Below, piece after piece: positions 24,922 through 55,555 of a stretch of DNA of 64,000 nucleotides. Both the position numbers and the translations under genes were made by a program. How positions within the stretch are numbered: position 1 is the stretch's first letter; each line of letters opens with the position of its first letter. The notes under the pieces were generated by a model. The model saw nothing but the letters and a program-made list of their open reading frames with translations, searched no databases and had not been told where the DNA came from. Origin of the DNA: Eledone cirrhosa (Eukaryota); assembly GCA_964016885.1 (NCBI GenBank), contig OZ024755.1, forward strand, positions 34,534,001 to 34,598,000. Direction: 5' to 3'.

Positions 24922-25050
24922 ATTAGGCGATACCCGCTGATGAAGCCGCATGTGCCGATTATGCATTGTTGCATAATATATGCAGAAAGACGGTGCAGTG
25001 CACCCTATTGCTGCATTAAGTGTGGCCGAAACTCAAGTCCGGGAACTAAT
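24922..25050 (+). ncRNA. Type I hammerhead ribozyme with a branched stem II
   Basis: CCCG-CTGATGA(24937-43)-aGCCGCA...TGTGGCc-GAAA(25028-31)-CT-ca-AG-TC(C17=25039)-CGGG. Stem I extends by ATTAG/CTAAT. Two hairpins lie inside stem II. Confidence 0.85.
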
Positions 25051-25243
25051 ATAGGCACCCGTTTACATGTGTTGTATTGAAGCGAATAACTGTGTGTATA
25101 CTCTGGGACTGTATCTTACATTATCTATTGAGTACGCTGAGATACAATCGGTCCTGGCATTGATAAATATGCTGGGTCCGTCAACTTCTTATTATGTATA
25201 CATATATATATATATAGAGAGAGAGAGAGGGAGAGATGTAGAG

Positions 25244-25305
<62 letters not shown>

Positions 25306-25484
25306 TAATAAAAACAATGAAATAAAAACAAAGAAACAGATCCTTATATTAAAAAATTCATCATTTTACGATCGTTTCTGGGATGTATATGTGTGTTGGT
25401 ATGTATATCATGTTTAAGATCTATGTAAAAATATTACAAATTATCAGAGGAAGTATACATACCTATATATATATATATATATAT

Positions 25485-25672
25485 ATAGGAACAAATATGA
25501 CGACGGCAGAGCTCAAGCCGTTTCAACGGCTAATTCTGGACTCAGCCGTCGAAACGGCTTGAGCTCTGCCGTCGGGGTCATACTTGTTCCTATTACCCAC
25601 TCTACTACCCTAAGTATTCAGTACTTTGGTGCGTTATAGCCCATCTGGTTCCTTACCACATTTCCTTCATTA
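25485..25672 (+). mobile_element. Fold-back fragment, family H1
   Basis: Inverted arms with GAAACGGC-ttgagctct-GCCGTC-GGGG plus a ~80-bp unpaired tail, inside (TA)n. Confidence 0.7.
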
Positions 25673-25857
25673 TATATATATATAGGCAAAGGTATATTTA
25701 ATTTGTTGGTAATTCAACAAATATATTTATAACAGATTCGAAGCACTCAACATGTTTTCTGGAGTATAATATCAATGATATTAATAACTATCCAGGTAAA
25801 ACTTGAACCGTTAAGGTCTCATTCCTGGATATTTCAATATTTATAAAACAAACTTTG

Positions 25858-25918
25858 TATTTTATCTGATGAGAGTGTACCAAAGCTTTGGTACCCTTGA
25901 AATATATATAATAGAATA
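25858..25918 (+). ncRNA. Minimal type I hammerhead ribozyme
   Basis: TATTTTAT-CTGATGA(25866-72)-GAGtGTACCAAAGCTTTGGTACcCTT-GAAA-TATATA-TA-ATAGAATA. Stem III is palindromic and AATAAA follows. Confidence 0.85.
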
Positions 25919-26032
25919 AATATGGTTTTATAAATATAGTTTCCATTTATTAATATCATTGATAGAGAAAGAGAGAGAGAGAGAATGAGAGAGAGAGACT
26001 TAGAGTTATATATATATATATATGTAAACAAG

Positions 26033-26063
<31 letters not shown>

Positions 26064-26182
26064 ATATATATATATATGACCATGACAAGTGGAGAGATGC
26101 TGTGCTGAATAGGACCCATCCCACCCTTGCAAGCAGGGAAAAGCAGACGTAAAATAATAATGATATATATATATACACACAC

Positions 26183-26566
26183 ATCATCATCATCATTTTA
26201 CGTTCATTTTCCCTGCCTGCAAGGGTGGAACGGGAACTAACTCTGGCTTGATTTCTACAGCTGGATGCCCTTCCTAACACCAACCTCATTCACAGTGAGT
26301 GCTGGGTGCTTTTTTTCCGTGGCGCCTACACGTCCACTTTACAGTGTGGGCTGGGTGCTTTTTTGCCATGACACCTCCACGACCACTTTGCAGTGAAATG
26401 ATATGGACCCCAGTCCCTATTATCTCATTTCTACAGCTGAGTAAACTAGAGCAATGTGAAATCAAGTGTCTTGCTCAAGGAAACAACACATCACCTGGTC
26501 TGAGAATTGAACTCTCAACCTTTCGATTACAAGGCCAATGCTCTAACCACTAAACCATGTGCCTCC
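26183..26566 (-). mobile_element. SINE family A (tRNA head + CORE-like box + AGGAAGGGCATCC box + RTE tail)
   Basis: Full match to the copies at 34819 and 62774. Confidence 0.9.
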
Positions 26567-26569
26567 ATA

Positions 26570-26650
26570 CACAATATATATATATATATATATACACATA
26601 ATATATATATATATACACATAATATATATATATATATATACATATAATAT

Positions 26651-26682
<32 letters not shown>

Positions 26683-26750
26683 ATATATATATATATAATA
26701 TATATATATACATATAATATATATACATATAATATATATATATATAATAT

Positions 26751-26795
<45 letters not shown>

Positions 26796-26916
26796 TATAT
26801 ATACATATAATATATATATATATATACATATAATATATATACATATAATATATATATATATATAATATATATATATATACATATAATATATATACATATA
26901 ATATATATATATATAT

Positions 26917-26995
<79 letters not shown>

Positions 26996-27001
26996 ATATA
27001 T

Positions 27002-27060
<59 letters not shown>

Positions 27061-27064
27061 ATAT

Positions 27065-27096
<32 letters not shown>

Positions 27097-27487
27097 ATAT
27101 ATATATATATATAATATATATATATATAATATATATATATACATATAATATATATATATACATATTATATATATACATATAATATATATATATATATATA
27201 TAATATATATACATATAATATATATATATATAATATATATACACATAATATATATATATATATATAATATATATACACATATAATATATATATACATATA
27301 ATATATATATATATATACATATAATATATATACATATTATATATATACATATAATATATATATATATAATATATATACACATATAATATATATATATATA
27401 CATATATATACACATATAATATATATATATACATATAATTATATACATATAATATATATATATATACATATAATATATATATATAAT

Positions 27488-27538
<51 letters not shown>
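26570..27538. repeat. ~1-kb (TA)n-derived microsatellite
   Basis: Direct inspection. Confidence 0.97.
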
Positions 27539-27543
<5 letters not shown>

Positions 27544-27575
27544 TAGGAATAACCAAAGAGTGCTTAGAAATACAT

Positions 27576-27639
27576 TGTTTTATTAGATAACAGTGTTTCA
27601 TCCATACACCATGGCAGGAATCATCAGAGCCTATAAACA
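27576..27639 (-). ncRNA. Minimal hammerhead (inverted copy)
   Basis: TCATCAG at 27621-27. Reverse complement of 28572-28635 with one stem I mismatch. Confidence 0.7.
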
Positions 27640-28571
27640 TGAGTATATCAGGTACGACGAGTTAAAGAAATGTATGGCACATATACAGCTGGCACAGATG
27701 TGAGGAAATGGAAAACATTCGGTCACTCAATTCAACGTGCCAGGTGAAATTCACTGTATGTCCAAGTTGGCGTCAACTTGTCGTACCTTCTTTTATTTTT
27801 TATTGTAGTATTTTTTATTGTCGATTTTTTATTGTAGATTTTAGGTGTATATCCCAGACCGCCTATGGTGATAAATCCTCTGGCTATAGGTTTGGGAAAA
27901 ATAGTGTTATCTCACTTGGAGTTCGGAACTGGAACATATCGATGTGGTTCGTAGGGTGTGGGTATGATAAGGAGAATTGGCCTATTACAGAGCGATATAT
28001 TTGGAGTACACCATCCCTCATATGGACTATCATACATGTAAGGCTGCATTACTGCTAACCAACTCCTCTTTTCACAGACTCGCCGCTTGCAAACTCTCTT
28101 GATCTGCCTGTACACCCCCTTTTGCACTGCTTGTGCTTTGATGCATCTATGCTTTGCTTTGTCTTATATACCTTTATATATTTTGGGGGGTGGTTCTGGG
28201 CTTTTGTTCATTAATTGTTTTGTATTTTTATATTTATCTCTTTTCTTATCCCTGTATTTTTGTACTTTTTTTATTATTATTTTTTTTGTTATTTTCTTGT
28301 ATTTTCTTATTGTTTCTGATCATACTGAGTAATACCCTCACTCATCCCTTGCTACCCTCTCCCAACCTCTTTATCATCTATTGCACCATTTAAGTGATAA
28401 AAAGTTTGGTGTAATTTTTAATTTTTTTAATTTTTAAGACATTTTATGACATTATGTGCATCATGTATTCTGTCTTTTTCCATATAGCGCTGGCCTCGGG
28501 ACCCCCTGCTGGTCATTTAACCTTGTTCTGGTGACACAGCTCAATGGAGCATGCAACTACTGATATACTCA

Positions 28572-28635
28572 TGTTTATAGGCTCTGATGATTCCTGCCAT
28601 GGTGTATGGATGAAACACTGTTAGCTAATAAAACA
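28572..28635 (+). ncRNA. Minimal type I hammerhead ribozyme
   Basis: GGCT-CTGATGA(28584-90)-tTCC...GGAt-GAAAC-act-GTT-AGCT-AATAAA, with a GUU triplet. Confidence 0.75.
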
Positions 28636-29067
28636 ATGTATTTCTAAGCACTCTTTGGTTAGTCCTATAACTGTAACGGCTCTGTAGTATACTAGTTATC
28701 CTACATTGAGCTAAAACCACACTGTCATACCAAGGGTAATATATCCACATGTCTGGGCATATTGATATATTTGTCAACAAAATATATATATATACATACA
28801 CACACAATATATATATATATATATAACGCATGCTAGCGTGGAAGATGGACGTTAAACGATGAGAGAGAGAGAGAGAGAGAGAGTCAAGATGGTAAGAGAA
28901 AGAAAGAACAAAAAGAAAAGTATATAAAGAGATAAAATGAAAAAAATAGAGGAAAGTATGCCATAGGTGATGTAGGTACTTTTACAGTTTTGCTATTTCG
29001 GTTTCTTGATATTAAATTAGTAGATTCAAAGTTCTACGATACACAGCTAAATTATTTGTTATCGGCA

Positions 29068-29107
<40 letters not shown>

Positions 29108-29578
29108 TTGTATTTCTATTATTTCATTTTATTTCATTAATAATTTTTTTCCTCAACAAAACTTATTGCACGGATGAAGGATTTTTCGCCTGAAATAATC
29201 ATCTATATATAATAGGAATTACATAAAGGAAAATTAAAATTAAATTTAGAGTTAAAATAGAAGCTAATTAGTTTTCTCATATCTACAGAGTCAGTATGGT
29301 GTCTATTCATCTGGAAAGTAGTACCATCTTACCAGAGGGAGAGTTGGAAAGTACATCTCGTAGTGAAACAAGCAATTATTGAAGACAGAAAAGTCTTACG
29401 CATAACATGGATCAGGGATCTTAAAGCATTTATCACCATACCTCATCCATGGCTAGATATTGGAGATATTACATATAAACAACACTCACTAAAACAATAT
29501 GTAACTGAGAAGGAAATTTTAAGTCCTGAAATATTAGGATGAATAATACCCCTACCAAAACAAAGATTACAATGTAAC

Positions 29579-29734
29579 CAGTGTCAGATCTACCATTGTG
29601 CTTAAGCACAAGGCTCCGTTGACCAGGGGAAGCCCATCTTCCCATCAAACATGTTTTTACCTCCTTCAGGGCCCAAGTGAGGGGCCTCATAATTCAACTA
29701 GCACAGGGTCTCATTTGTCCTAAATCTGGCAATG
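29579..29734. mobile_element. Possible old hAT-like MITE
   Basis: Imperfect terminal inverted repeats cagtgtcagat/atctggcaatg and internal gggccc-rich motifs. A related piece lies at ~5785-5938. Confidence 0.35.
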
Positions 29735-30812
29735 TAGGTAACTAACTTTTTCATTCTCTTCAGAGGCTAAAACAATGCAAAATGGATGATAAATCCATTT
29801 TGCGTTGTTTTAGCCTTCTAATATATCACTTCCACATTATATATTATTATAGGGCTAGTTAGACATGTGAAATTGTAGAACATTGGATAACATGACTAGC
29901 AGTATTTATTCTGGTTCTTTATGTCTTGAGTTCAAATTCTGCCAAGGTTGATTTTGCCTTTTATCCTCTTGAGAGGGTCAATAAAATAAAGTACCATTTC
30001 AGAGCAGTGGTTTGATAGATTTGTTAGGGTATCAGGGAAAAATACCATGCAGCATTTGTTGTAGGTCTTTATGTAGTGAGTTTGTTGGAATGATCATAGA
30101 TATAAATACATTAGTCATTCCAATTATAAACTATAGCTTCAATAAAGCTTAGACCCCCCCCCCCCAAAAAAAAAAACCATTCTCCTTCTTTCCCACTTAT
30201 TCCTGAGAAGGTTGTGGAGGCAGGATCCTCAAACACTCCTTCCAGCAGGTTCTGTCAGAAACAACCATCTCCAACTGATCCCCCACCCCACACACACACC
30301 AAAAGAAACCCCCTGAAACTTACACACTGATTTCTGAAGTCACCATTTCAAACTTGATATAGTTATGATATAAATACCTTGTACTGTAGGAGGGTGAGAT
30401 CTGATATAGAGAACTGATACAAATTAATCTTGCTTGGTCCAGAAATATACTTAGAAGCAAGCAAAGATATACAGATTAGTTTTATTAGGGAGTATGAGAA
30501 AAAAACAACTGTGTTTCTATATATAAGGAAATAAAGTCCAACCTAGAAGCTAATTACACCAAAGAGAGGTGCTTAGATAAGGATAAAAAATATCTAAAAA
30601 AAAAAGCTCCACAAATAAAAGAGAAAGTAAAACTAAAAAACAATAGCAAATGATGGCTCAAAGGAGCTAGTATCAGATATTAAAGTTGTATCTGCCATCT
30701 AGATTTAGCAGAGAAAGAAATATATGCTGTGACTGTTGACAGTAAATATATATTGCAAACTGTAGATAGTTGATTCAATTGCTGAGAAATAGATATCAAA
30801 GGAAAATATATA

Positions 30813-31050
30813 TTTGACAAGCTACATGTCTATATATGGTGTTTAACAAGCTACATGTCTATATATGGTGTTTAAAATGCTACATGTCTATATACAGTGT
30901 TTAACAAGCTTCACGTCTATATAAGGTCTTTAACAAACTACATGTCTATATATGGTGTTTAATAAGCTACATGCCTATATATGGTGTTTAAAAAGCTACA
31001 TGTGGTGTTTGTTGATCTGGATAAAGCCTTTGATTATGTTTCCAGTGGAA
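30813..31050 (+). repeat. 29-bp minisatellite (~6.5 units) running into a LINE RT remnant
   Basis: Unit tttaacaagctacatgtctatatatggtg. The last unit continues as KLHVVFVDLDKAFDYV. Confidence 0.85.
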
Positions 31051-31081
31051 CATTCTAGTTAGAATTTCCAAATCTTAAACA

Positions 31082-31344
31082 CATACAGACAAGCACCATG
31101 TACTGGGACTCACTCTCACAAATCTAAAGAACCTGAGACACAGACAAGCACCATGTACTGGGACTCTCACAAAACTGTAAAGAACCTGAGACACAGACAA
31201 GCACCATGTACTGGGACTCTCACAAAACTATAAAGAACCTGAGATACAGACAAGCACCATGTACTGGGACTCTCACAAAACTATAAAGAACCTGAGACAC
31301 AGACAAGCACCATGTACTGGGACTCACTCTCACAAAACTATAAA
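31082..31344. repeat. 53-bp minisatellite (~5 units)
   Basis: Unit acagacaagcaccatgtactgggactctcacaaaactataaagaacctgagac (e.g. at 31140 and 31193). Confidence 0.92.
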
Positions 31345-32269
31345 ATGTTCAAAAATGTTTGTGTTTTACTAGAATCACCTAGAATGAGGAAAACAGACTC
31401 CAATGTGATGATTTATTTAGACATGTTTCAGTATATGTCCCTCCCACTCACAGAAACATTTTAGGACCTGTCATCTAAACCATTAGGATACTTTTAGCAG
31501 CTGTATGTTTAGAAATTTCCGAAATAACAGTATTGAAAATAAAAGAAAACCAATGCTAATGACACACTGGGAAATTGTAGTAAACACATATTCATTATCT
31601 AGCAATATATGGTTTGGTGCAAGATTTATGTTTTATGTTACATTTTTATCAATATTTTCCTGTCCTCAAATTGCTTACTGCACACTTAGCAGCTAATTAA
31701 ATGATATTCATTATACTGTAGTCTCTTTATGTAATAAATGCATTTAAAAATACCTTGATAGACAACTAAAAGTTGACAATAATGACATTTGAAATCCCTG
31801 GGGTTGCTGATATCAGAGAATTGTATAGTACATCATTAACTTTGGTAAGACTTCATTAGTATATTAACGGTTGTTGCTGCTCAAAGGTTTATTTATTGAA
31901 GTTTAATACAACTTGACTTATCACAGTTAATCACAACTATTGTTCTAGCAGTTTCACACACTGAAATAAATAACCCTTAATGTAGTGTAAATGATTTTAG
32001 AAGCCCAAAGGAAGAAAAAAATATAATAACATTCTAATTTCAAATTTTGTCAATCTTATAATCTTAATATATATAAACAAATTATTTTAATGCACATAAT
32101 GGTTTCAGATTTAGCACAAGGCTAGAAATTTACCCTAGTGCTTACTGGTGCTTTATTTTAACGACCCCCGTAATGATTCAGCTCCCACACAAACCACTAT
32201 TCATAAATACTATCTGTTGTAGGGAAAAAACCCTGAACACCCCCGTGTAACTAAAAGTGTTTTGTCTCT

Positions 32270-32368
32270 CACCATTGTAACAGGTGTGTCACCATTGTAA
32301 CAGGTGTGTCTCACCATTGTAACAGGTGTGTCTCACCATTGTAACAGGGGTGTCTCACCATTGTAACA
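32270..32368. repeat. ~22-bp tandem repeat (4-5 units)
   Basis: Unit tcaccattgtaacaggtgtgtc. Confidence 0.9.
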
Positions 32369-34818
32369 CTATCCTTGCTCCCCACAGCATGCTCTCTACC
32401 ACTACAATTTCTTCTCTGGCCATCAATTTACAGATGTCAAGGCAGTATATCATTGTCATTAGTGTCAGAGAAAATGTGAAGTTCATAGATATAGCCTTTA
32501 CCTTCAAACTAAGCCATAAATAATTTTAGTGTTCTTGGATGAGTAACAAAGGAAAATTTGTACAAAAGGGAAATATGTTTTGTTTTAACTATAGAAAATA
32601 AATTTCTCTGGTTATTTAGCATTAACTCATTTCTACAGAGTTTCTGAAAAAACCCCCAGGTAATTGTTGATGTTTGACAATTTAGTTTAGTAGGTATTTT
32701 GGTACTAGAATAAGGAAGTGTTATATAACTAATTACATAAACTTCGAGATAATTAAGAAAAAGAAACCTTTAAAGTCGTAAACAATTTTAATAGAAAACC
32801 TACACAAGCAGTGTAATATAAACTACTACTATTTTCTATAGCAAGATATATCTTCTAATTTAAGAAAACATTGTTTAGACTATGTACGTCATTTGCTTCA
32901 AAATATGTAATCTATGATATGTTTTAATGAATTATCTAAAACCTTTATAAATCACTTTGTTGATAGTGAAATATACTTTATCAAGGCTTAAATGCCACAA
33001 TGGAAGATTTTGTATAGGAATGTAAAAATTTGGAAAATTTTCTTTAAATATTTCACTGTTAAAATGTTTTTGTTTTATTGTTTACAAATAAGAATCTATT
33101 CAAACATGTATATCAAAACTTCACACCCCTTTCTCAGAATAAATTGTATTTAATAAAATGAAGGAATTTATAAATGGTTACTTAGCCTAGTTAGAATAAT
33201 AGCAAAAACTCTTTCAAATTAACATTAAAAAATTTCTATTTACAAAAGTAAAAAAAGAAGTGTGGAAGATGCCCACACTGAATGACATGCCACAAGAATT
33301 GAGAGTTTTTTTTCTTAAAACTATTGAGATATGCCAACACACTTTCAGCATTGCTGCAAGTGATACCAAAGCTATCCAACCATCTTGTTCATGGTCTACC
33401 TCTGGGTCTCCTGCTAGTTGATTTTGCCTATAAAATCTGTCCAGTGATTCTTTCCTTAGACATTCAAACTATATGTTCTTAGTGTCAGAGATATGATCTT
33501 TTGATTTGGAGAAGTAATGGCTCTACCTGAAGTGACTCCATAATTTTTAAGCAGAGCCTTTCACAACAAGTCCCATGGATATTTGGTCGTCTGTGTTGCA
33601 TCCAGAGTGAAAAACTTCACTTTGTTAGCTTCATGTTTATTATGAAAAATATCTATGTAAATAAAGTTTGTTGTTTGCTATTAAAAAGACACAACTTAAC
33701 AATTTAGAATAAATTACTTGAATTTTCTAGCAAGGAATTTTGTGAACAAGAGAAATTATACTTCATACTAGCTTGGGGGAAACTCTGAAAAAAATAATTT
33801 GTAAATCTCTTTTGAAAGAAAAAGAAACAAAACATTAGATGTTTTATAAGAAAATTTCTATTTCAATAATGCAGAAATTCACATTCATCAACAAAAAATA
33901 TTTCAGGCAATGCTATTGTCTTATGGTTTATGTAAGTACAATTGGCTTCCATTGCCCTTTTGGTAATCATTAACAAAAGCATCAATCTCTCTATTTCCTG
34001 TTTTCAAAGAATTTATTTCTACCTGTACAATGTGTATTTATCGTACCCTAAGGAGTCTCAATCGATTTTTTTCCAAACTACTTGGTTGTGTCTCTCCCTC
34101 AAGGCTTTTGATAGATCAACAATATGAAACCTATTTCTATAAATAATTTGTCCTACACCAATGTGCTATTTTAAATTTACACAGAGCACATCGATATACA
34201 CACATACATATATATGTGTGTGTAAATAGATTTTCAATAATATGTATGTAGGTGTTTATGTATATATGCATTTATATGTGTGTGTGTATATATATATATG
34301 TATGTATATGTATATATATATATATATATATGTAAAGAACATGTGTATTCAGAAAATGTACTGTTGATGCAATAAAAAATTATATATATATCATCATCAT
34401 CATCGTTTAACGTCCATCTTCCATGGGTTAGACAATTTTGTTCCATTTGATGTGGGAATGGTCGATAGACCGTGTCTCGCTTGTGTGTATATATATATAT
34501 ATATCATCATCACCGTTTTACATCCGTTCTTTCATGCTAGCATAGATATATATATGGAAGCACATGGCTTAGTGGTTAGAGCAGCCAATATTCTATTTGT
34601 AGTAAATGCAAACGAGCATCTCCAGCTGTTGCTTCATAAACGAAAATTATATAAGCTATAGTTTATTCTTGTCTTAGTACTGATTGATTAAATATCACTT
34701 ATGGTAGATGAAAATCCAGAAACATGTGTCTGACACTATCATGTGGCTACTGAGACAGTGATGACATGATCAGGACTTAAAATATTCATAGTGAGACTCT
34801 TGCATATTTATTACACAT

Positions 34819-35182
34819 GGAGGCACATGACTTAGTGGTTAGAGCATTGGCCTTGCAATCTAAAGGTTGTGAGATCAATTCTCAGACTGGGTGATGTGTT
34901 GTTTCCTTGAGCAAGACACTTTATTTCACATTGCTCCAGTTTACTCAGCTGTAGAAATGAGATGATAGGGACCGGGGTCCCTATCATTCCACTGCAAAGT
35001 GGTCGTGGAGGTGCCACGGCAAAAAAGCACCCAGCACTCACTGTAAATGAGGTTGGGGTTAGGAAGGGCATCCAGCTGTAGAAATCAAGCCAGAATCAGT
35101 TCCCATCTCCCGTCCCACCTTTGCAAGTAGGGAAAAGCGGACGGAAAATGATGATCATGATGATCATGATGATCATGATGAT
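34819..35182 (+). mobile_element. SINE family A
   Basis: A-box cttagtgg, B-box-like gagatcaattc, CORE-like ccttgagcaagacacttta...cagtttactcagctgtagaaatgag, and an RTE-type tail. Confidence 0.9.
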
Positions 35183-35350
35183 ACTAATAATATTATTTAT
35201 ACTTATATATGAGTTATATATAATTATAAATATGATATAATTATAAATTATAATGTATGCACCGAATATTCCAGACAGTTGTCTGGAAGAAATGATCGTC
35301 AAGCAATTAAATGTATTAAGCAAAAATTTGATTGTTTTATATTTTGTATA

Positions 35351-35387
<37 letters not shown>

Positions 35388-35389
35388 GT

Positions 35390-35683
35390 GAAGGCGTGTG
35401 GCTGAGTGGTTAGAGCATTGTTGGCCTTGCAATCGAAAGGTTGCGAGTTCAATTCTCAGACCGGGTGATGTGTTGTTTCCTTGAGCAAGACACTTTATTT
35501 CACATTGCTCCAGTTTACTCAGCTGTAGAAATGAGATGATAGGGACTGGGGTCCAATATCATTCCACTGCAAAGTGGTCGTGGAGGTGCCACGGCAAAAA
35601 AGCACCCAGCACTCACTGTAAATCAGTTCCCGTCCCACCCTTGCAAGCAGGGAAAAAGCGGACGTAAAATGAAATGATGATGA
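35390..35683 (+). mobile_element. SINE family A (internal deletion)
   Basis: Same consensus but lacking the AGGAAGGGCATCC box. Confidence 0.88.
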
Positions 35684-35950
35684 TAAGAAACAGAAGTTTA
35701 AAATGCAATTGGAATCTTTAAGGAGGGTTATTTATAAGAACTTATAACTTTACCGGTTTTACAAGTGTTTTGATTTTCTAAAGTTAAGAGAGATGTAGAG
35801 ATGTGGGTTACAAGTCAGCCTAGCCACATATCTCTCCATCTCTCTTAACTTTTGAAAATCATGAAACCTGTGAAACAGGCAAAGTTATGAATTATTGTAA
35901 ATAACCCTTCTAAAAGACTCCAACTGCTTTTTTAAACTTCTTTTTCCTAT
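35683..35950. mobile_element. Fold-back element, family H2 (U3-A8 hammerhead variant in both arms)
   Basis: Imperfect ~125-bp arms centred near 35815. Right arm AACTT-TTGAAAA...GAAAC-AG-GCA-AAGTT. Left arm (minus) TAACTT-TAGAAAA...AAAAC-CG-GTA-AAGTTA. Confidence 0.65.
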
Positions 35951-36579
35951 ATTTTTACACATGTGGGATATATTTTTTTTTTAAATGAGCCAAGGAGGGT
36001 GCTTCTATGCAGTTGTTCAACCTGCTATAAATAGCAGCCACATTTTCCTCAAATCACTCTTTATATTTTTGATAAAGGAAAGACACATTGGATAACGTGA
36101 TGATAGATATATGTTGATTTCCTAATAAAATACATGATGGTCATGGTAGGAACATCTTTGATCATAGGTGTCTTGGATCAAGGTTGACCCAGGGCTAAAA
36201 CACAACATAAACATGAAAATGTCGACAGTTATAGATTTAACAGTAACAGCAGTACCAACAACAGTAACAACAGGAACAACAGTAACAGCAATAGTTATAA
36301 TGGAGATGAGAGTGGTGTTGATGATGATGATGATGATGATGATGGAGATGATGATAATGACAATTATGATCATCACCATTACCCCCCCCCCCCCCCCATC
36401 ATGAGCATTCTCCTATTAGAACCACAACCACCACCAAGAGGAGGAGGAGGAGTAGGAGTAGGAAGAAGATGGGAAGGAGGAGGCGAGAGGGGGAGGCGAG
36501 AAAGGTGAATAGGGGGAGGTGGGGAATATTAGGAGGGGAGAAGAGGGGGAGTGAAGAGGGGAGGAGAAGACAGTAATAA

Positions 36580-40535: not shown

Positions 40536-41325
40536 CCCTTTACCATTTACATTACTCTATATATACTATTGTATTTTCTCAGTAAAGGCTTTACCTCACA
40601 TAATATCTCATAACATTTACGTTACTCTATATATACTATTGTATTTTCACAGTAAAGGCTTTACCTCACATAATATCTCACATAACATTTACATTACTCT
40701 ATATTTACTATTATATTTCACAGTAAAGGCTTTACCTCACATAATATCTCACATAACATTTACATTACTCTACATATACTATTATCTTTTCACAGTAAAG
40801 GCTTTACCTCACATAATATCTCACATAACATTTACATTACTCTATATTTACTATTATATTTCACAGTAAAGATTTACCTCACATAATATCTCATAACATT
40901 TACATTACTCTATATATACTATTGTATTTTCACAGTAAAGGCTTTATCTCACATAATATCTCACATAACATTTACATTACTCTATATATACTATTGTATT
41001 TTCACAGTAAAGGCTTTATCTCACATAATATCTCACATAACATTTACATTACTGTATATATACTATTGTATTTTCACAGTAAAGGCTTTATCTCACATAA
41101 TATCTCACATAACATTTACATTACTCTATATATACTATTATATTTTCATAGTAAAGGCTTTACCTCACATAATTATCTCACATAATATTGAATCTATGCG
41201 ATTTTGATATTATTTATTTTGAGAACAATACCTTAACACCTGTATGAGTGGCCGGTTATGGGCGGTTTGAACAGAAAGAGGTGAGAGAATTCTGGCCAGA
41301 TACGTTTGGCTTAAATGCTAAAGGA
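40536..41325. mobile_element. TTAA MITE with an internal 72-bp minisatellite (~9 units)
   Basis: TTAA at 40532-35 and 41326-29 around the array. Confidence 0.9.
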
Positions 41326-45300: not shown

Positions 45301-45344
45301 CCTATATAGAGTGCCAGATTTAGAACAAATGTCCACCTTCCAAA

Positions 45345-45415
45345 TATTTTATCTGATGAAAACACAAATGTTATTGCATGATGATATTTGTTTTTGAAAT
45401 GCGCATAATAAAATA
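45345..45415 (+). ncRNA. Minimal type I hammerhead ribozyme (best-preserved copy)
   Basis: TATTTTAT-CTGATGA(45353-59)-15-bp stem II-GAAA(45396-99)-TGCGCA-TA-ATAAAATA. Perfect 8-bp stem I and palindromic stem III ATGCGCAT. Confidence 0.92.
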
Positions 45416-45562
45416 CATGGAACTCTTTTAACCATCTTTTGATCTTATATATTATGTATACTCCAGTCCTACAAACTGTAGAGTGCTTCTTATCCGATAT
45501 CTGCATTGCTTTATTGTACTACAATAAAACTCACCTCCTACATATATATATATATATATTAT

Positions 45563-46123
45563 ATATAATATAAAACGAAAAATCAGTGATGCATCTGGAC
45601 TCAGTTTATTGTGTGTTACAATTGTTTCACCGGCAGATTGCTCGAGACAGGATCCTTGTATGGATCTGCTGATTCTAGATCTGCAGATTCTTCGGAGACA
45701 TGCAATACTTTTGGAACAAACTTTCTCCCTGGGGTGTTAGCTTCAAAAACCATCTTCCTCTCCTGTCTTGCTATTGGCTGTTGTTTTTCTACGTCATCAT
45801 AAATTCTGGTCAATATTTGCTGCCAAACTGGCCATCAGAGAAAAACAACAGCCAATAGCAAGACAGGAGGGGAAGATGTTTTTTGAAGCTAACACCCCAG
45901 TGAGAAAGTTTGTTCCGAAAGTATTGCATGTGTCCAAAGAATCTGCAGATCCATAAAATGATCCTGTCTCAAGCTGTCCACCGGCGAAACAATTGTAACA
46001 CACAATAAACTGAGTCCAGATGCATCACTGATTTTTCGTTTTATATTATATCACACTCTGCTCTATAAAAACATAGAGTGCTCAATTGGCATACCGCCTA
46101 TGGAAGCATCATAGCTACCATTA
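45563..46123 (+). mobile_element. Asymmetric fold-back element, family H3 (U4C-core hammerhead in each arm)
   Basis: Arms 45563-45790 and 45839-46051, 48-nt spacer, ~70-bp unpaired tail. TGTGT-CC(G/A)AAGA...GAAAC-AATT-GTA-ACACA-c-AATAAA. Confidence 0.75.
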
Positions 46124-46124
46124 A

Positions 46125-46159
<35 letters not shown>

Positions 46160-46629
46160 GATAGATATACATACATATATATATAACAGAATACATATCA
46201 GAAGTATTTACAAACCAGATGCATGGATTAGAATATTAAGCTAGAAGTGAATTATATTTTTCATCAGCAAAAGCTATGCTTGTCCCAGCTAAAATAGATA
46301 AAGATGATCATAGTAGACACTAGATTTAGCTAACTGAAGTAGGATAAACATATTTGGTGCAACTTTAAGATATAGATACCAAAAATATACTTTTCGAGAA
46401 TAGAAATTCTATTCAAATTTTTTTTCAATTTTTACTTACTTTAATATATTTTTATATATCTATTTAGATTAGAAGATAAGCAAGGTTTAAATTTGGTTTA
46501 TGATTTGACGTGACTTCTTGTCAAAAACAATCCTGGTGGATTGAAGAAAAAAATATAATATTATTCCTGTCTCAAACTTGAAATGAGTGTCATATTAATA
46601 CACAAACACACATGCACATACAACACCTT

Positions 46630-46661
<32 letters not shown>

Positions 46662-47357
46662 CATCATCATCATCATCGTTTAATGTCCACCTTCCACGCT
46701 TGCATGGGTTTGGACAGGAATTTTCCCACTTGAGGCAAGATTGGTTGTCCTGCTCATATAGGACTCTCTGGCGGGTTTTCTACGGATGGATGCCCTTCCT
46801 AACACCAAACACGTTTACAGTGTGGAACTGGGAGGTTTTTACCGTGTTACATACACGGCCACATTACAGCGTGGACTGTGTGTTTTTTTGTTGTGACACC
46901 TACACGACCTCATTTGTTTCGGCCTGGATGTTGTGGTACCACCATAACTTTACATCGAAAGGGTTGGTGTGGATGGGGTGGGGGTAGTGGGACGGGGGTG
47001 TATTTTTGTTAAGAGGTGCCTACCGACTGTAGGTTTCGCTTTGTACTTAGGCAGTCTTCTGTATTACTGTGTAGCGCCAAAGATCTCGATCCAGTGACAT
47101 TGTCTTGGAGAGGTGTAAGTGTGTGAGGTCGGAATTTATCAAGTCGTCCCAGGTTTTTCTGGGTCTGCCTACTCCGTGGCTACCGTCTATTTTTATCGCC
47201 CTGCACTTTTTTATGCAACTGTCGTCTTTCATGCGCATCACGTGACCATACCAACGTAGTCTTCTCTCGAGTAAACAACATCTGATCCCTCTTATTCCTA
47301 ATTTCTCCCTTACTTCATTTATGCTTTGCCGTTCACATATATTACTATTACACATCC
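46662..47357 (-). mobile_element. RTE LINE 3' end with long 3' UTR
   Basis: ERRLRWYGHVMRM, GRPRKTW, DRDLWR, and an (ATG)n tail. Confidence 0.92.
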
Positions 47358-47407
47358 AATATATATATGAATATATATATATATATGTGTATATATATAT
47401 ATATATA

Positions 47408-47513
47408 TAAGGAAAAAAGATGAAATCGAAAATGCAACTGGAGTCTTTTTTTTTTTAAATATATATTTTGGTTCCTTTACCGGTTTCGCAGTTCTTCTGC
47501 GTTTCAAAAGTAG
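47408..47513 (-). ncRNA. U3-A8 variant minimal hammerhead + tail (family H2)
   Basis: On minus: CTT-TTGAAAC-GCAG-aagaa-CTGC-GAAAC-CG-GTA-AAG, then the family tail into (TA)n. Confidence 0.6.
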
Positions 47514-47999
47514 AATTGAGAACACAAACGCAACCCAGGAATCGAGCCCACAACATTATGATCATAAGTCCAACACCTTTACCACTAGGCCACGTGCCTC
47601 CACATATATATATACACATACATATATTTATATATATGCATACATACATGTATATATATATATATATCCAGGGAGTGTAACTTGGAGTTACTGTAGGTTC
47701 ACCCGGGTGAGCACTCGTTTAGGTTCACTTCAATGTCGAGGTGTAGAGCTAGACAGAGTGTATTATAGTGAAATAAGATAACAAGGACGATTGGTTACTC
47801 CTTCATTACGTTTATTGGTGAAACATGCGTGACCTTGCCAGGATTTGAGCTCAGACCATAAAGGAATGTAACTCTATGCTGCAAAGCATGACATCTGACC
47901 CTCTACTGATACTGCCAATCCAACGAATTAACACCATCTGATATGAACACAAAAATTTGTATCTTTAGCTGTTTAAAGAATAAAAAAGATAAAGATCCC

Positions 48000-48665
48000 A
48001 TAACCCCTTGTGGAGTCGTAGAGGTACCGTCATATGGTGTGTCTACGGCACTTTTAAACCTGGTGGAGCCCAACCCTCTCCAGGTCTGAACACAGCCAAT
48101 TTTTTCTATAGAGGAAGAATCAACTCCAGTACTGGACTGGTACTTTTTTTTTTATTGACCTCGAAAGGATGAAAGGCAAAGTTGACCATGGCGGGATTTG
48201 AACTCAGAGCACACAATGAGGTTGGATCATCATCATCCTCATCTTCATTTTACGTTCGCTTTTCCCTGCTTGCAAGGGTGGGATGGGAACTGATTCTGGC
48301 TTGATTTCTACAGCTGGATGCCCTTCCTAACACCAACCTCATTTACAGTGAGTGTTGGGTGCTTTTTTTCCATGGCACCTACACATCCACTTTACAGTGT
48401 GGGCTGGGTGCTTTTTTGCCGTGGCACCTCCATGACCACTTTGCAATGGAATGATAGGGACCTCAGTCCCTATCATCTCATTTCTACAGCTGAGTAAACT
48501 GGAGCAATGTGTAATAAAGTATCTTGCTCAAGGAAACACCACATCACCCGGTCTGAGAATTGAACTCACAACCTTTCGATTGCAAGGCCAATGCTCTAAC
48601 CACTAAGCCATGTGTCTCCATGCATACCATAAAGCATTCTATTTGACTTTGCCAATTCACCGCCA
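48000..48665 (-). mobile_element. SINE-B variant interrupted by SINE-A (48228-48619)
   Basis: Head at 48624-48665, body and alternative tail at 48000-48210 (similar to 6160-6490). Confidence 0.8.
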
Positions 48666-49527
48666 TATTCACCTATCCACATTTGTCAACATCAAACCTG
48701 CTAGGGAATTGTTCAATATTATGACGTGTAAAGGAAGACAATAACAGAGTATATAAGCTACTTTCAAACTGAATGAAAATAAGGGCCGTATTATATATTC
48801 CCTGTTAAAATCATTGCTATCATAGAATATATAAGGATTGTTAAAACTAAACATTCAGAAGCACAACACAAACCAAACATTGCATAGAATAATGTTAAAG
48901 AGAGAAGAAAATTATAGCAAGTATTTGGACATAAGCCTTGAAAGTGAGGGAAGGATAAAGAGGGGTCAGATGGACATTGGACAGGGATAAGAGGGAAAGA
49001 AAGGGAGAAGGAAAACTGGAAATAATGGAATATAAGACAGAATTGTCTTATTGGGGGCAATGGAAGAGAAAAAAGAGAGAGAAAGGGTGAGGAGAGAGGA
49101 GAGAGAAAGGGTGGGAGAGAGAGGAGAGAGAAAGGGTGGCAACAAGAGAGGAGAGGAAAGAGAAAGGGTGGGAAAAAGAGAGGAAAGAGAAAGGGTGAGG
49201 AGAGAGGAGAGAGAAAGGGTGGGAAAAAGAGAGGAGAGAGAAAGGTTTGGAAAAAGAGAGGAGGAAGGGTGGGAAAAAGAGAGAGAGAAAGAGAGAGAGA
49301 AAGGGTGAGGAGAAGAGGGGAGAAAGGAAGAGGGGAGAAAGAAAGAGGGGAGAGAGGAAGAGGGCAGAGAGAAAGAGGGGAGAGAGGAAGAGGGGAGAGA
49401 GGAAGAGGGGAGAGAGAGGAAAGAGAGAGAGCTCTAATAAAAACAGTTACATTGTAAAAATGAGTGCGTAGCATTAATGCACACACACACATACACACAT
49501 ACATACATGTATACACACACTTACACA

Positions 49528-49835
49528 TGGGTATAAGAGGGATAAGCTGTAGTGTGCAGGAGAGAAGACTGCGATGGTATGGACATGTGATGCACATGGA
49601 GGTTGACCACTGGGTTAAGAAGTGCCAAGAAATGCCAGTAGAAGGAAGACACAGTAGAGGAAGACCACGAAAAACATGTGCGGAGGTGGCGAGAGCTGAT
49701 CTCAGATTGCGGAAGCTCACGGTGGAGATGACGAAGGACCCGTGATGAATGGAGAGATGTTGTGCTGAATAGGACCCGTCCCACCCTTGCGAGTGGGGAA
49801 AAGCGGACGTAAAATGATGATGATGATGATGATGA
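49528..49835 (+). mobile_element. RTE LINE 3' end (tail donor of SINE-A)
   Basis: QERRLRWYGHVMHM..GRPRKT. The tail cccacccttgcgagtggggaaaagcggacgtaaaatgatga is shared with SINE-A. Confidence 0.9.
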
Positions 49836-51029
49836 ATGCATAATAACATTACCTAATTTCTGCCAATGGTGGTTCCACTTGGACCATTGTCAGTAGAACA
49901 GAATCATAGAAAATGGTGCATTGGTCCAGGTATCTCAATTTTACTAACCACACGAAGTAGTCTTCCTCTCTGATCAACGTATAAGTGTACACTCTAATTG
50001 ATTGGGTTCGAATTTAATAATACGGTCTTAATTAGATTATTGAATTAGTGAGGAAATTACCAAAGCTGTGTCCATTTTATTTGGTAAGCTTCGTCTTTTA
50101 ATTATGTATGTATATATATGTGTGTATATATATATATATGTGTATGTATATATATGTGTGTGTATATATATGTGTGTATATATATATATGTATGTATATA
50201 TATGTGTGTGTATATATATGTGTGTATATATATGTGTGTGTGTATATATATATATATTTTTATTTTTTTCAGTGTGGTCTACCCTGGGTGGTAAGGACGT
50301 ACCTTAGATAGAACTCAATGTAATCGAATGACAAGTAATCCAGTGAAATCTATAGAGAAGTTCTGTGTTCTGCTGAGTTAATTCCTTAGATACAGAGTCA
50401 GATATTAGGTATTAAATTAATAATGAAAATAAAAACAACAAAGTCAAGTTATTTTACCCATTCATATCAGTTTTACGATCGTTTCAGAGGGTTGATCATA
50501 TTTACATATTGTCTGATCTATAGCAGTTATAGAACTGTATACTATCAGACCTGATCTATAGGTTCGATCAGGCCGTCTTCTTTGCAATATATATATATAT
50601 ATAGTTCAACGGGACAACAAACAGAGATATAAAAAGTTTCATGCTTTCTAGGAAAAAGATAGAAAGTCCGAAGTGTCAAGCTTAAGCCCTTCTACAGCAG
50701 TACAAAATAGAGACAGGATCACAAAGGAGGTCCAAGTAAAGAAAAAAATCAAACATAAAGAGTGTAAACAAGACAAACCGTTAGATAGTGTTGGTAACAA
50801 GTTGGAACACAAAATGAATTGTGTGTTTATAAGTGTCGATATTATGTGTGAGTGTAAGTGTATGTACCTTTATTTGTTGTACCCTTGAACTATATTTTCC
50901 AAGCTTACATGCCAATCTTTGTATTTCGAAACTGGATATTTACCTATACCATGTGACTACTCTATTTTACCATCCTGACCAGCCAGCGGATTACCCACAG
51001 ACCTTCAATATTTGGATATAAATCAACTC

Positions 51030-51365
51030 TCAAGTGGCCAGGAGGGAAGCTAGGAGACAAGTGTACTTCGCAAGAAGGGAAGCAGAGGAAAGAAAATACA
51101 AGCATGTTCTACAACGCGAGGACCAAAAACGTGAGGTGTTCAGGATTGCTAGGCAATATGTCAAGGAAAACCGTGATAGAAGTGTGTACTTAATGATGAC
51201 GGCATACTTGCCATCACCGACGCTGATAAGAAGGTAGCTTGGAAGTGTCACTATGAAAGGCTACTAAATGAGGAGAATAAATGGGAGAAAGACAGTCTCC
51301 CCCACATCGACCCAATAGAGGGACCAGCAGTGTTAGTCGAGGGTAGTATAATAAGTAAGGCAATC
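51030..51365 (+). mobile_element. RTE LINE fragment (EN-RT linker)
   Basis: ARREARRQVY..EVFRIARQ..AWKCHYERLLNEENKW. Confidence 0.8.
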
Positions 51366-51413
51366 ATATATTTCTATGCTTATTTCCATTGGTATACATC
51401 TATTACGCAATTT

Positions 51414-51471
51414 ACACCTGACGAAGTCACCGGGTTCTTAAGCAAACTGAGCACTAAAATGTGCATAGTGT
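51414..51471 (+). ncRNA. Decayed minimal hammerhead (G12A)
   Basis: ACAC-CTGACGA-AGT...ACT-AAAA-TGTGCA-TA-GTGT, then AATAAA and a tail ending in (TA)n at ~51680. Confidence 0.6.
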
Positions 51472-51856
51472 TTACAGGAATAAAAAATTAAGGAAATTCA
51501 ACATTTTTGGCCTTCTGTCATTTCACTTTATAATACATTTTCTCTGTTCCCGCAACACCAACATGATTCAACATTGAAGATGGATGAGTTGCATAACGTT
51601 GAGTGCTTTTCTCATATTACGTCACGGTTAACATTGCAGAATGACCAATTCTACCCAGTGGTAGACCACCAAATTTAAATGTATATATATGTATAACCCA
51701 TGCTAGCGTGGAAGATGGATGTTAAACGATGATGATGATATATAACTAGATCTACAAAACCAAATAGTAAAATTATAATATTATAAAATTAAATCAAATT
51801 GTTTATAACTACAAGTGAAGTCATTATTTTCCTGTTTTCAAATATATATATATATA

Positions 51857-52150
51857 TATCATCATCATCATCATCATTTAACGTCCATGTTCCACGCTTG
51901 CATGGGTTTGGATGGGAGTTTTTCCACTTGAGGCAAGAGTGGTTGTCTTGCTCGCATAGGACTGTCTGGCGGGTTTTCTACAGCTGGATGCCCTTCCTAA
52001 CACCAACCACATTTACAGTGTGGGGCTGGGAGGTTTTACCATGTTACCTACACGGCCACATTACAGCATGGACTGCGTGTTTTTTTGTCGTGACCCCTAC
52101 ACGATCTCATTTGTTTCGGCCTGGATGTTGTGGCACCAACATAACTTTAC
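51857..52150 (-). mobile_element. 3' UTR of the main RTE family
   Basis: Matches 46662-46955. Confidence 0.85.
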
Positions 52151-52987
52151 ATTGATACCTACCCATCCTCTCCCCTGTCCACCGCACCTCCGCACACACA
52201 CAGTCCACACCACATACAGACCCTTTCTTCACCTGTCATCCTCCTCTACTGCTATCTCTTCATCCTGCCTTGACCATCTGACCCCACTTCCTGTTGCGCG
52301 CACACCCCCACATCTCTCCACTTCCACACCACCACCACAAATGGATATCACACCACCGGTCATCGTTCCAGCTATCCACTCTATAACAGGAGAAATATCC
52401 GACATCTTATCGCACACTCCATGGAACTACTTTAGGAACTTACCCACAAACAAACACTCACATTTTTTTTTTGAGCCACGCCGCCTACATCCACACCACA
52501 TATAAACACAAACACACATGTGCGTATCCCCACATACACACACTCAGCCTCCGGAAACCACACAGCCTCCCCCCCCCCCCCGCTCTGACCCCTCTCCATC
52601 CACACGCACGCACACACTGACTTACACCCCACCCCATGTACACACTGGTTCCCCTTTACCTGGACATGGAACCTCGTTCTTCCATCAACTCTCACATTCA
52701 CACACACACACACACACAGAAACGTACACCTACACTACCTTCAGCCCTCCCCACCTTCCTCTCCCAACTCCACCCACCACCACCCCTACACGCCTCACAC
52801 CACTTGTTTATTTTTCCCTCCCTTTTCTCCCCCCCCCCCCCCCACCTTTTTTAATGTCTTTCCACCATTCCCACACACACCCTCGGAACTCTCTTCCCCC
52901 ACCCCACACCCCACTCTCAAAAACGTGAACTTAATAAACTACCATTTGTACTGCCTCTCTGTTTTTTGTTCCTGTCAAATATTTAAC

Positions 52988-53070
<83 letters not shown>

Positions 53071-53751
53071 GGGGGGGGATAAATAGAGAGGGGGAGAGAG
53101 AGGGAGGGAGAGAGAGAGGGAGAGTCTGCAGTAGTGAGCAGATGAATGTGGAAATATTTGGAATGCATCAGACCTATGATGCAAATTTTTCTTTAAAACC
53201 TGATTAGTAAAATGATAGGTAAATGTATCGACATACTTCCAGAGACATATATCTTTAGGAAAAAAAAATGTTTTACTGCATTAATTCAATCTTACAATTG
53301 CATGAGATCTTTAACTAATGAAATATCTTCTCAATATATCAAAATCTTTCTACAATAAATTTTTTTTTAAATGATAAGCACTGCCATTTACCTTCTAAAA
53401 ACATCCTTTCTAACAACTCTTTCAGAATAACATTACAAATATGCCATTGATAAATATAAAGTGGAAAGTAATTCCATTTTGTCCGCTTCTGGAAGCTAAA
53501 TATAGAAACAATTATGTGAACACGTTCAATACTTGAAAGTCTTCACGGTTGCAAGTGAGACATATGAATATGCTTAGCAATTAGCTTTCAATTAATATAT
53601 ATTATATAATCTATCATGTTTAGCAGCATGGAGTCCTTTCCATGTTCCCTAAATAGATATAAACAAACCTATATATATGTGAATATTTATGTGCATATAT
53701 GTGTGTATGCATATATATGTATGTATGTATGTATATATATATGTATCATCA

Positions 53752-53802
<51 letters not shown>

Positions 53803-54198
53803 GTATATATGTGTGTGTGTGTGTGGTGGTGGGTATGCATATATGTGCATATTTGCATGAGGTGGGGACATATGCTTCAGAGTGCATGCATGTATGTGTA
53901 TATATATATATACACACATATATATATATATATATACATATCATATATATATACATATACATATATATATACATATACATATATATACATATACATATAT
54001 ATACATATACATATATATACATATACATATATATACACACATATATATATATACACATATATATATATATATACACATATATATATGTATACACACATAT
54101 ATATATACACACATATATATATATACACATATATATATATATATACACATATATATATGTATACACACATATATATATATACACACATATATATATAT

Positions 54199-54242
<44 letters not shown>

Positions 54243-54769
54243 TGTTGAAGACATGACTTCTTCCCAGTTTCAATTTCTATATTGTTCACGATTCTGTAAG
54301 AAACAGACATGTTGTCTAGAATCCTGGATGAAAATAGGCGATTAATTATGGACACAACATTTATAACGCAATTTGGTGCCAAAATCAATACACAGTATGT
54401 TACTAGCCACATAAACAAGGTCATGATCACATCACTCGTGATGTGTATGTCTAATGGTCCAGTAGGAAAATGATAAAATGATCGTGAAGCAAGAATTGCA
54501 TATAAATACATAAAACACATATACCTATAATAAAAGATGCAGTAAACATAAACCAACAATACTCCTGAAGAAGAGATTATGAATATCTGGAAACGTTTAT
54601 AAAATCATGGACTTAGAAACTTTGTTGTTTCAAATGAAATGTCGAGGCAGTTTTGGAAAATAGAAGATTCAAATAAAGACATTGTTCATCTTCATCAACA
54701 CATATAAAACAAGAACTGTTCCGCATACATACATGCATCTGGAATTCTATAAGAATCCGGCTTCTATAA

Positions 54770-54860
54770 TTTTCGGTGAAAGCATGGGGGTACATGGCTC
54801 TGATGAATGCCAACCAGCATGAAACAGACTGTCAGCTTCTCTCCCCTCTTTCGCCGAAAA
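54770..54860 (+). ncRNA. Type I hammerhead ribozyme with extended stem I
   Basis: GGCT-CTGATGA(54800-06)-ATGC-caacca-GCAT-GAAAC-AGaCT-GTC(C17=54833)-AGCT. Distal pairing GGGG/CCCC and TTTTCGGTGAA/TTCGCCGAAAA. Confidence 0.9.
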
Positions 54861-55090
54861 GAAGTAAGTGACATAGTGACTACTTTAAAACTGATAGCGT
54901 ATGGTCTTCTAAATGTTTTTAATTAAACATACGGTATATTGCCAAATATACTATACATACATTCATGTATACATCGCTATTTCAGAGCACCAATCCTTAC
55001 ATATATATATATATATATAAATATATATATAATAAAATGAACACAGGACATATGTCAACGGTTTGGATGGGACCACCCATGTAAACTCGC

Positions 55091-55174
55091 ATATGTGAAG
55101 AGGTGTCGATTAGGAGTCAAGATTTGATCGCCCGATCAAACCCGAGCTGATCGATATCAAAATAGTTGTAATAT
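55091..55174 (+). ncRNA. Decayed hammerhead (C3G, G12A)
   Basis: ATAT-GTGAAGA-12-bp stem GGTGTCGATTAG/CTGATCGATATC-AAAA-TAGTT-GTA-ATAT, then AATAAA. Confidence 0.55.
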
Positions 55175-55472
55175 CCAATAAAGTTTCATAACAACCTGAA
55201 AATCTGATTTCCTAGTCTCTCACTCTATATATATATAGAAAATGGTGTTGTTAATCCAGTTCTTTGGATTAACAATACAACTTCCCGGATCTGGGCATAT
55301 CAACAAAATAAAAAAACCCAATGCATTACTGGTACTTTATTTTATCGACCCTGTAAGGATGAAAGGCAAAGTTAACCTCGGCGGGATTTGAACTCAGAAT
55401 AGCAAACTCTATGTGTCAAAGCATAATAATGGAGGTAAACTTTATTCCACCATTATGTTTCCCTGCTTTTTC

Positions 55473-55555
55473 TATTCAAGTTCTAGCTGCCTGATGAGGT
55501 CATAACTGTTGAATAATGGTTATCACCGAAATATATATTGCAGCGAATATGAATA
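55473..55555 (+). ncRNA. Minimal type I hammerhead ribozyme
   Basis: GCTGC-CTGATGA(55491-97)-GGTcATAAC...GTTATcACC-GAAA-TATATA-TT-GCAGC. Distal TATTCA/TGAATA pairing and AATAAA. Confidence 0.85.

Follow-up and report, generated by a model that had tools for sequence, protein, structure and literature searches.

The link between Penelope-like elements (PLEs) and minimal hammerhead ribozymes is already published (Cervera & de la Pena 2014, PMC4209133). For the inverted, tailed insertions of PLEs, the model in print invokes self-priming from an antisense template (PMC3846280), and the main text of the 2024 in vitro work stops before the inversion step (PMC11167929). The stretch analysed here, hereafter the window, comprises 64,000 nucleotides of Eledone cirrhosa (contig OZ024755.1, positions 34,534,001-34,598,000) within a 3.0-Gb, 1,796-contig genome assembly, and an original prediction made from its letters had placed many distinct hammerheads in it. 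These motifs are almost certainly, for the most part, the 3' pseudo-long terminal repeat (pLTR) ends of 5'-truncated PLEs, elements of a known kind in a very large expansion. Their head-to-head insertions, in which a tailed arm faces an untailed one, probably formed by twin priming from both target strands. To PLE-end identity and twin priming as a joint explanation we assign a probability of roughly 0.7.

Hammerhead motifs and the elements that carry them

The window was searched with a strict, scored type I descriptor (core plus stems I-III in type I order), and hits scoring at least 10 were counted, with 150 block-wise and 150 whole-window dinucleotide shuffles as controls. Five such hits were obtained, against a shuffle mean of 0.04 and a maximum of 1. 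Six of the seven motifs that had been named as intact are intact minimal type I hammerheads (24937+, family A; 25866+, B; 28584+, D; 45353+, E; 54800+, F; 55491+, G), and the four cut sites proposed for them proved exact. The seventh, named by its low coordinate 27621, is a minus-strand core at 27627-27621 whose 3' stem I strand reads ATCT against AGCT, leaving a mismatch in stem I. It shares both its family and its insertion with 28584+, forming the inverted arm; the seven motifs represent six insertions. An Rfam search, suggested as a check, returned no hammerhead in the window at the gathering threshold, nor does any occur among the 150 listed of 355 E-value hits, the motifs being picked up by the custom descriptor only. 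A relaxed scan of the window with two core mismatches gave nothing above chance. One further descriptor hit, a lone UUGACAA core on the minus strand at 9951-9905 (score 10.5), is probably due to chance.

Elsewhere in the genome most of the hammerhead families occur 1-2.2 kb downstream of Hydra-type or Neptune-type frames encoding a reverse transcriptase (RT) and a GIY-YIG endonuclease (EN). Longer copies, which the original prediction had proposed to look for, join such open reading frames (ORFs) for the 25866-like, 28584/27627, 45353, 45690/45934 and 47500/14223 motifs and, more weakly, for 55491. Inside the window no PLE ORF was detected by tblastn, and ORF-bearing copies occur only elsewhere in the genome (loci carry L numbers below). 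Family D corresponds to a 2-kb untranslated region (UTR) downstream of a Hydra-type EN with CxCX5C and CxxC...CxH and without CCHH, features diagnostic of the Hydra clade (PMC8557442); it follows this EN in L224 and L250-L252, and is contiguous with the frame end in L221 and L222. B-like motifs, 79-84% identical to window 25866, lie downstream of Hydra-type frames in L227 and L191. Family E lies downstream of a Hydra-type EN in L194 and L246, at about 1.1-1.3 kb, and family H (45690-/45934+), whose core keeps C at position 4 (CCGANGA) in 14 of 18 loci (L254-L272), does so in L267. For family G, a Hydra-type EN is found about 1 kb upstream in L229, and L230 shares UTR pieces. An apparent link between a B-like motif and an L063-type ORF in L227 was rejected, the motif being a nested insertion across a (TA) run.

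The Neptune-type family was reached by a Pfam GIY-YIG search of the genome, which recovered L061, a pLTR-ORF-pLTR arrangement with a 938-aa frame (RVT_1 plus GIY-YIG), a CX4CxxC linker and the 47500- motif at both ends. The window copy at 47500- is 87% identical to the L061 pLTRs, which carry a U3-A8 hammerhead, and has sisters at 14223+ and 35870+. The 3' ends of L063 and L075 also belong to a Neptune-type family, with a pLTR lacking a hammerhead by the descriptor.

A search for the Hydra-type endonuclease domain gave 61,610 first-look candidates, and many of the 150 that were scored lie in open frames of 800-960 aa. In L061, L235 and L238-L241 the two pLTRs each carry a hammerhead and enclose one ORF that encodes RT and, at its C terminus, GIY-YIG; in the intact Hydra-type siblings (L235, L238-L241) the frame has 826-873 aa, and intact copies measure 4.85-5.1 kb from pLTR to pLTR. 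The Hydra-clade features DKT, CxCX5C linker, EN CxxC plus CxH and absence of CCHH are all found in L238 and L235, and the C-terminal ones also in L194, L191 and L224. The N-terminal RWK position reads RWR in L238 and RWL in L235; among 120 homologs, 81 have RWK and 114 RW[KR]. A quick tree of these ORFs, unnamed homologs and Neptune-type ORFs placed the first two groups apart from the third. Among homologs of the main PLE protein just one is named, from Argonauta hians, with 43% identity across 56% of the query. Genome copies also show the PLE traits of 5' truncation, partial tandems, an inverted 5' copy and a tail at one end. Family searches bear out the prediction that minimal hammerheads of the PLE/retrozyme type occur here in numerous multi-copy families and sit within (TA)n. 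The claim that the families are non-coding and hidden from ORF-based annotation fails for the six window families that join PLE ORFs upstream in longer copies, and stands for A and F, which were ORF-less in the 20 loci inspected for each.

These last two families bear on the view that all families are independent non-coding retrozymes spreading as self-cleaved circular RNAs. Only 24937+ (A) and 54800+ (F) look, from their sequence, like non-autonomous retrozymes: both occur as head-to-tail partial tandems of an ORF-less unit, of 858 nt in A (a partial tandem is seen in L084) and 316 nt in F, and in those 20 loci each neither a PLE protein match upstream nor an ORF-linked copy was found. The 3' part of F is 79% identical to a 311-nt tandem family, and the families of L206 and L197 form tandem arrays of 311-nt and 592-nt units with a hammerhead in each. 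Against this view stand the six window families joined to PLE ORFs and, as a weak test for fossil cleavage, the absence of any pile-up of D arm ends at the predicted cut (H17), none of 12 ends within 100 nt upstream of the 3' end called site 1 below lying within 3 nt of it. Extended to all families the view is very improbable, and for D, E, H and the Neptune-type family it is refuted. A sequencing-run search for family D returned no RNA dataset among the matches listed.

Arrays of 592-nt and ~311-nt units were observed in L197, L206, L240 and L266, and those of L197, L206 and L240, with a hammerhead per unit, are candidate active retrozymes. In L233 (989-1181) a 76% relative of F (window 54739-54930) has the U3-A8 core UUGAUAA in place of CUGAUGA, so that the core covaries from one related family to another. 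A GIY-YIG domain near F in L032 was treated as unrelated.

Two 3' ends and their pairing in head-to-head insertions

All ORF-linked families tested have two fixed points at which their 3' ends meet (TA)n, site 1 (untailed) and site 2 (tailed), whose spacing is 107 nt in D, ~96 in B, 95 in P, ~90 in G, ~85 in E, ~82 in H and 68 in the Neptune-type family; in F, five of seven longer partner hits end ~26 nt before the main end. Head-to-head pairs combine one end of each kind. Among 82 pairs, 77 are tailed/untailed, none is untailed/untailed, four are tailed/tailed (two of these being 5' pLTRs that run into the ORF) and one is unclear. All seven head-to-head pairs of family H follow the same pattern, as do all ten clean Neptune-type pairs, a set free of selection by query, with two more that are consistent but edge-cut or spanning an ORF. 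A genome-wide count of exact D ends gave 242 for site 1, 184 for site 2 and 0 in controls. On contigs C1-C2 (85 and 48 ends), neighbours tallied by eye from the site-1 and site-2 end lists gave 18 site-1/site-2 pairs within 6 kb, all head-to-head; same-site pairs comprised one head-to-head and one convergent site-1/site-1 pair and no site-2/site-2 pair. Forty further D ends were fetched, 39 without an exact partner plus the site-1/site-1 exception; 12 proved to have a partner of the other kind, one has a doubtful distant partner and one is the exception itself. The one-of-each rule thus governs two-armed insertions, and many copies are single-armed.

Arm lengths range from tens of bases to more than 4 kb. 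Of 58 pairs, 33 have the untailed arm as the longer one, 17 have arms of equal length, and in 8 the untailed arm is the shorter (negative values in the underlying length table denote arms that fall short of the tail length or references with poor coverage). Five D tailed arms stop before site 1 and hold nothing but distal tail. Junctions in B vary from copy to copy and both arms of one E copy share private variants; each inversion therefore arises anew from one template lineage. This is difficult to reconcile with inverted pairs that are MITE-like DNA elements (miniature inverted-repeat transposable elements) or composites amplified as units, with the hammerheads as relics. Top B hits do look like one ~280-bp unit between (TA)n tracts, and the E palindromes share one centre. 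However, B junctions vary, E arms match within a copy and not across copies, and arm lengths are spread over the range given above, leaving such units scarcely credible; a fixed 280-bp unit for family B was dropped once its junctions proved variable.

Under another explanation of the same elements, the inverted arm comes from self-priming, one template folding back on itself, and endonuclease resolution leaves or trims the tail. Both parts are published, the former as the model for rotifer PLE inversions (PMC3846280) and the latter for the tail (PMC8557442), and both the private variants shared by the arms of one copy and the 10 near-perfect palindromes among 20 E pairs fit it. Yet a fold-back copy cannot hold sequence absent from the first strand, and it is the untailed arm that is longer in most of the 58 pairs; the five D tailed arms that hold distal tail only argue in the same direction. 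We regard self-priming as unlikely, and twin priming is favoured because tail-only arms are impossible under the published self-priming model.

Under twin priming, one nicked target strand would prime at site 1 and the other at site 2, both on RNA of the same sense; the two cDNAs would stop at variable points, and microhomology would then join them into a head-to-head insertion, possibly with overlapping arms. Copies with one arm would result where the second priming fails, or where an arm is later lost or separated. Twin priming as known from L1 differs: in PLEs the second start would lie at a fixed position downstream of the first, and overlap between the arms is possible. In vitro, a PLE protein of predicted dimeric form cuts and extends the two strands of AT-rich DNA, and uses two internal RNA start sites whose spacing equals the tail on a mostly uncleaved RNA template (PMC11167929). 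Uncleaved RNA would likewise be the likely template here, most of the dispersed single copies being probably passengers. We lean slightly towards the stronger form in which two-site twin priming by a dimeric RT-endonuclease is obligatory and would account for both tail and inversion.

Stem III of all seven motifs closes a cis loop of only 0-2 nt and can form trans self-duplexes of -1.6 to -10.5 kcal/mol. By this modelling the hammerheads would fold actively only as dimers via palindromic stem III, a dependence expected of minimal hammerheads (PMC4209133). For F and the mismatched 27627- motif the hammerhead fold is 7 kcal/mol less stable than the minimum-energy fold, and the gap is at most 2 in the other five. 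One may speculate that the palindromic stem III serves as an RNA dimerization signal pairing two pLTR templates, two templates being in use because arms overlap, which would explain the retention of a barely active ribozyme. This is rather doubtful, and Naiads form inverted, tailed insertions yet lack hammerheads (PMC8557442).

Several points weigh against the joint explanation of PLE ends and twin priming. A tail on one inverted arm has already been described as optional (PMC3846280, PMC8557442), and the proposed steps of twin priming are read from genome sequence. The 82-pair set was partly query-selected, the B query containing the composite and the E query the tail. L154 and L215 score as tailed/tailed, L292 is a confirmed untailed/untailed pair, and 26 of the 40 further D ends have no inverted partner within 6 kb. 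Both insertion ends join (TA)n, so that a target-site duplication is illegible there. As to identity, only 79-84% sisters of the exact 25866 subfamily were seen behind an ORF, the link of family G to PLEs is weaker and comes from one EN-bearing locus, and no autonomous partner of A or F was found.

Some features of the arms and tails were noted in passing. Most top hits of tailed E arms (L142-L152, window 45342) end at the 5' strand of stem I, where the ten near-perfect E palindromes are also centred; this may reflect an RT stop at the ribozyme, or query bias. A 26-bp piece of the D tail has expanded in L283 into a minisatellite of more than 50 copies. The tails of B, E, G and H have in common, by eye, the short motifs ACUC...AG and GAGUGCU, possibly a shared protein-binding structure.

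Inventory of the window and genome-wide abundance

The window contains the following parts, with predicted cut sites given as H17.

24680..25195, plus: family A, 5'-truncated copy of the ~858-nt unit; core 24937-24943, 85-nt branched stem II, H17 25039
25685..25795, minus: family B inverted arm, short, with the ~96-nt tail and ~18 nt from the 3' end (site-2 end), 77% to the L227 tail; approximate bounds
25796..25962, plus: family B untailed arm (site-1 end); core 25866, stem III AUAUAUAU, H17 25910
27540..27777, minus: family D inverted arm, untailed and internally deleted; core 27627-27621 with a mismatch in stem I
27778..28778, plus: family D long tailed arm, Hydra-type PLE 3' UTR; core 28584, H17 28622, site 1 at 28672, 107-nt tail to ~28778
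45342..45545, plus: family E tailed arm; core 45353, stem III AUGCGCAU, H17 45407
45563..45838, minus: family H inverted arm, untailed, with a mismatch in stem I; family core CCGAAGA near 45696-45690
45839..46135, plus: family H tailed arm; core at 45934 mutated, G5 to A
54739..54997, plus: family F, 5'-truncated copy of the ~316-nt unit; core 54800, H17 54833
55256..55598, plus: family G untailed arm, split by an unrelated ~110-bp repeat at ~55317-55424; core 55491, H17 55539
47406..47521, minus: Neptune-type pLTR end, untailed; U3-A8 core, A9 to C
14176..14306, plus: sister Neptune-type pLTR end; intact UUGAAAA core at 14223, H17 14252
35683..35980: decayed Neptune-type head-to-head pair; untailed minus arm 35683-35787, plus arm 35845-35980 with tail-like extension
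25305..25378, minus: half copy from GAAAC, long-stem-II family, stem III ACGAUCGU; 95% to L129, which has an intact motif
35255..35335, plus: decayed copy of the core-CCGAUGA family; 84% to L194

The two D arms (27540-28778) form one insertion, with a short untailed inverted arm and a long tailed one, and head-to-head pairs of one tailed and one untailed arm also occur at 25685-25962, 45563-46135 and, decayed, 35683-35980. Relatives of the eleven variant, decayed or half copies named in the original prediction were sought among 272 genome loci, and eight have them: 14223+, with its intact U3-A8 core; 25365- and 50475-, half copies starting at GAAAC, the latter with a single relative that lacks an intact motif; and the decayed 35262+, 35870+, 45690-/45934+ and 47500-. 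Among the same loci, 29171 and 51418 have no relative, both also failing the type I descriptor, and 55095 has one weak match only. The window is further rich in microsatellites, contains decayed Helitron-like Rep/PIF1 helicase frames with PIF1 domains at 359-2834, and carries a dispersed 72-bp tandem repeat family at 17083-17834, 18852-19142 and 40544-41189.

Abundance was estimated from forty 10-kb stretches of the genome, chosen blind at round coordinates, in which motifs scoring at least 10 were counted and 20 shuffles served as controls. These contained 47 intact motifs, against 0.4 in shuffles, 26 of them in 20 stretches from contigs C1-C5 and 21 in 20 from smaller contigs, falling into 18 sequence clusters. 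Intact motifs therefore occur at 1 per 8.5 kb in the sample and about 1 per 11 kb in the window; the predicted one motif per 3-4 kb is reached only when decayed and half copies are included. Other predicted properties were borne out by the sample: stem III is a perfect palindrome in 37 of the 47 motifs; 20 have AATAAA no more than 35 nt from the cut, compared with 3% of random positions; and 35 are followed by (TA)4, compared with 24% of random positions. Genome-wide, an estimated ~350,000 intact motifs are present, with Poisson bounds of ~260,000-470,000 that widen given clustering. Also, the tight pattern CTGATGA, N8-30, GAAAYATATAT has 18,301 genome matches and its reversed control 31. Published counts range from 2,000-9,000 per genome for minimal motifs (PMC4209133) to as many as 120,000 retrozymes in axolotl (PMC7229834), against which the present genome would be the most hammerhead-rich, a comparison that is rough given the other descriptors used there. 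About one hammerhead-bearing repeat end per 8.5 kb thus escapes Rfam, and the head-to-head arms represent many potential double-stranded RNA hairpins.

Comparison with known systems

In the literature searched, with subscription papers and supplements outside the search, twin priming of PLEs was not found; the accessible text of two cephalopod repeat papers (PMC13282606, PMC8967140) mentions Penelope and not ribozymes. The supplements of PMC8557442 (Hydra hosts, hammerheads) and PMC11167929 (Figs S1-S2) may bear on novelty.

The motifs resemble the minimal PLE hammerheads of PMC4209133 in their CUGANGA/GAAA/UH core, U3-A8 variant and palindromic helix III, in the large number of consensus families in each genome, in the predominance of single motifs left by truncated PLEs, and in opposite-strand pairs 100-700 bp apart. 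They differ in a family with a conserved C4 core and in number, by the roughly comparable counts given above. The Hydra-type elements share with the Hydra-clade PLEs of Craig et al. (2021, PMC8557442) the C-terminal GIY-YIG, DKT, the CxCX5C linker, the absence of CCHH, CxxC/CxH around the catalytic E and N, a canonical hammerhead, the (TA)n target, the tail and the inverted 5' copy. In contrast, their units measure ~4.9-5.1 kb, where published ones are generally below 3 kb (a descriptive and not a diagnostic difference), their tails 85-107 nt against 30-40, RWK reads RWR or RWL, and the 61,610 first-look candidates compare with few published families outside cnidarians. L061, placed by motifs alone, is like Neptune/Nematis-type PLEs in GxKF, DKG, a CX2-5CxxC linker, two cysteines between GIY and YIG, a pLTR hammerhead and the (TA)n target, with a tail of 68 nt here.

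Families A and F recall non-LTR retrozymes (PMC7229834; Li et al., bioRxiv 10.64898/2026.07.22.740005) in that their head-to-tail units lack an ORF, carry a single type I hammerhead and occur alongside PLEs. Unlike these, A and F, known here from DNA, are mostly partial tandems of 1-1.7 units with PLE-style inverted arms, and the A unit of 858 nt exceeds the usual 150-450 nt.

The PAc in vitro system (Frangieh et al. 2024, PMC11167929) agrees with the proposal in its two internal RT starts, both strands cut and extended, predicted dimer and uncleaved template, whereas its main text draws no link between the two start sites and inverted arms. In the present genome, long tails and thousands of young copies yield a sharp rule, one end of each kind per pair, which gives a prediction testable in that existing system. 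This tailed/untailed rule is the addition made here to the published association of PLEs and hammerheads.

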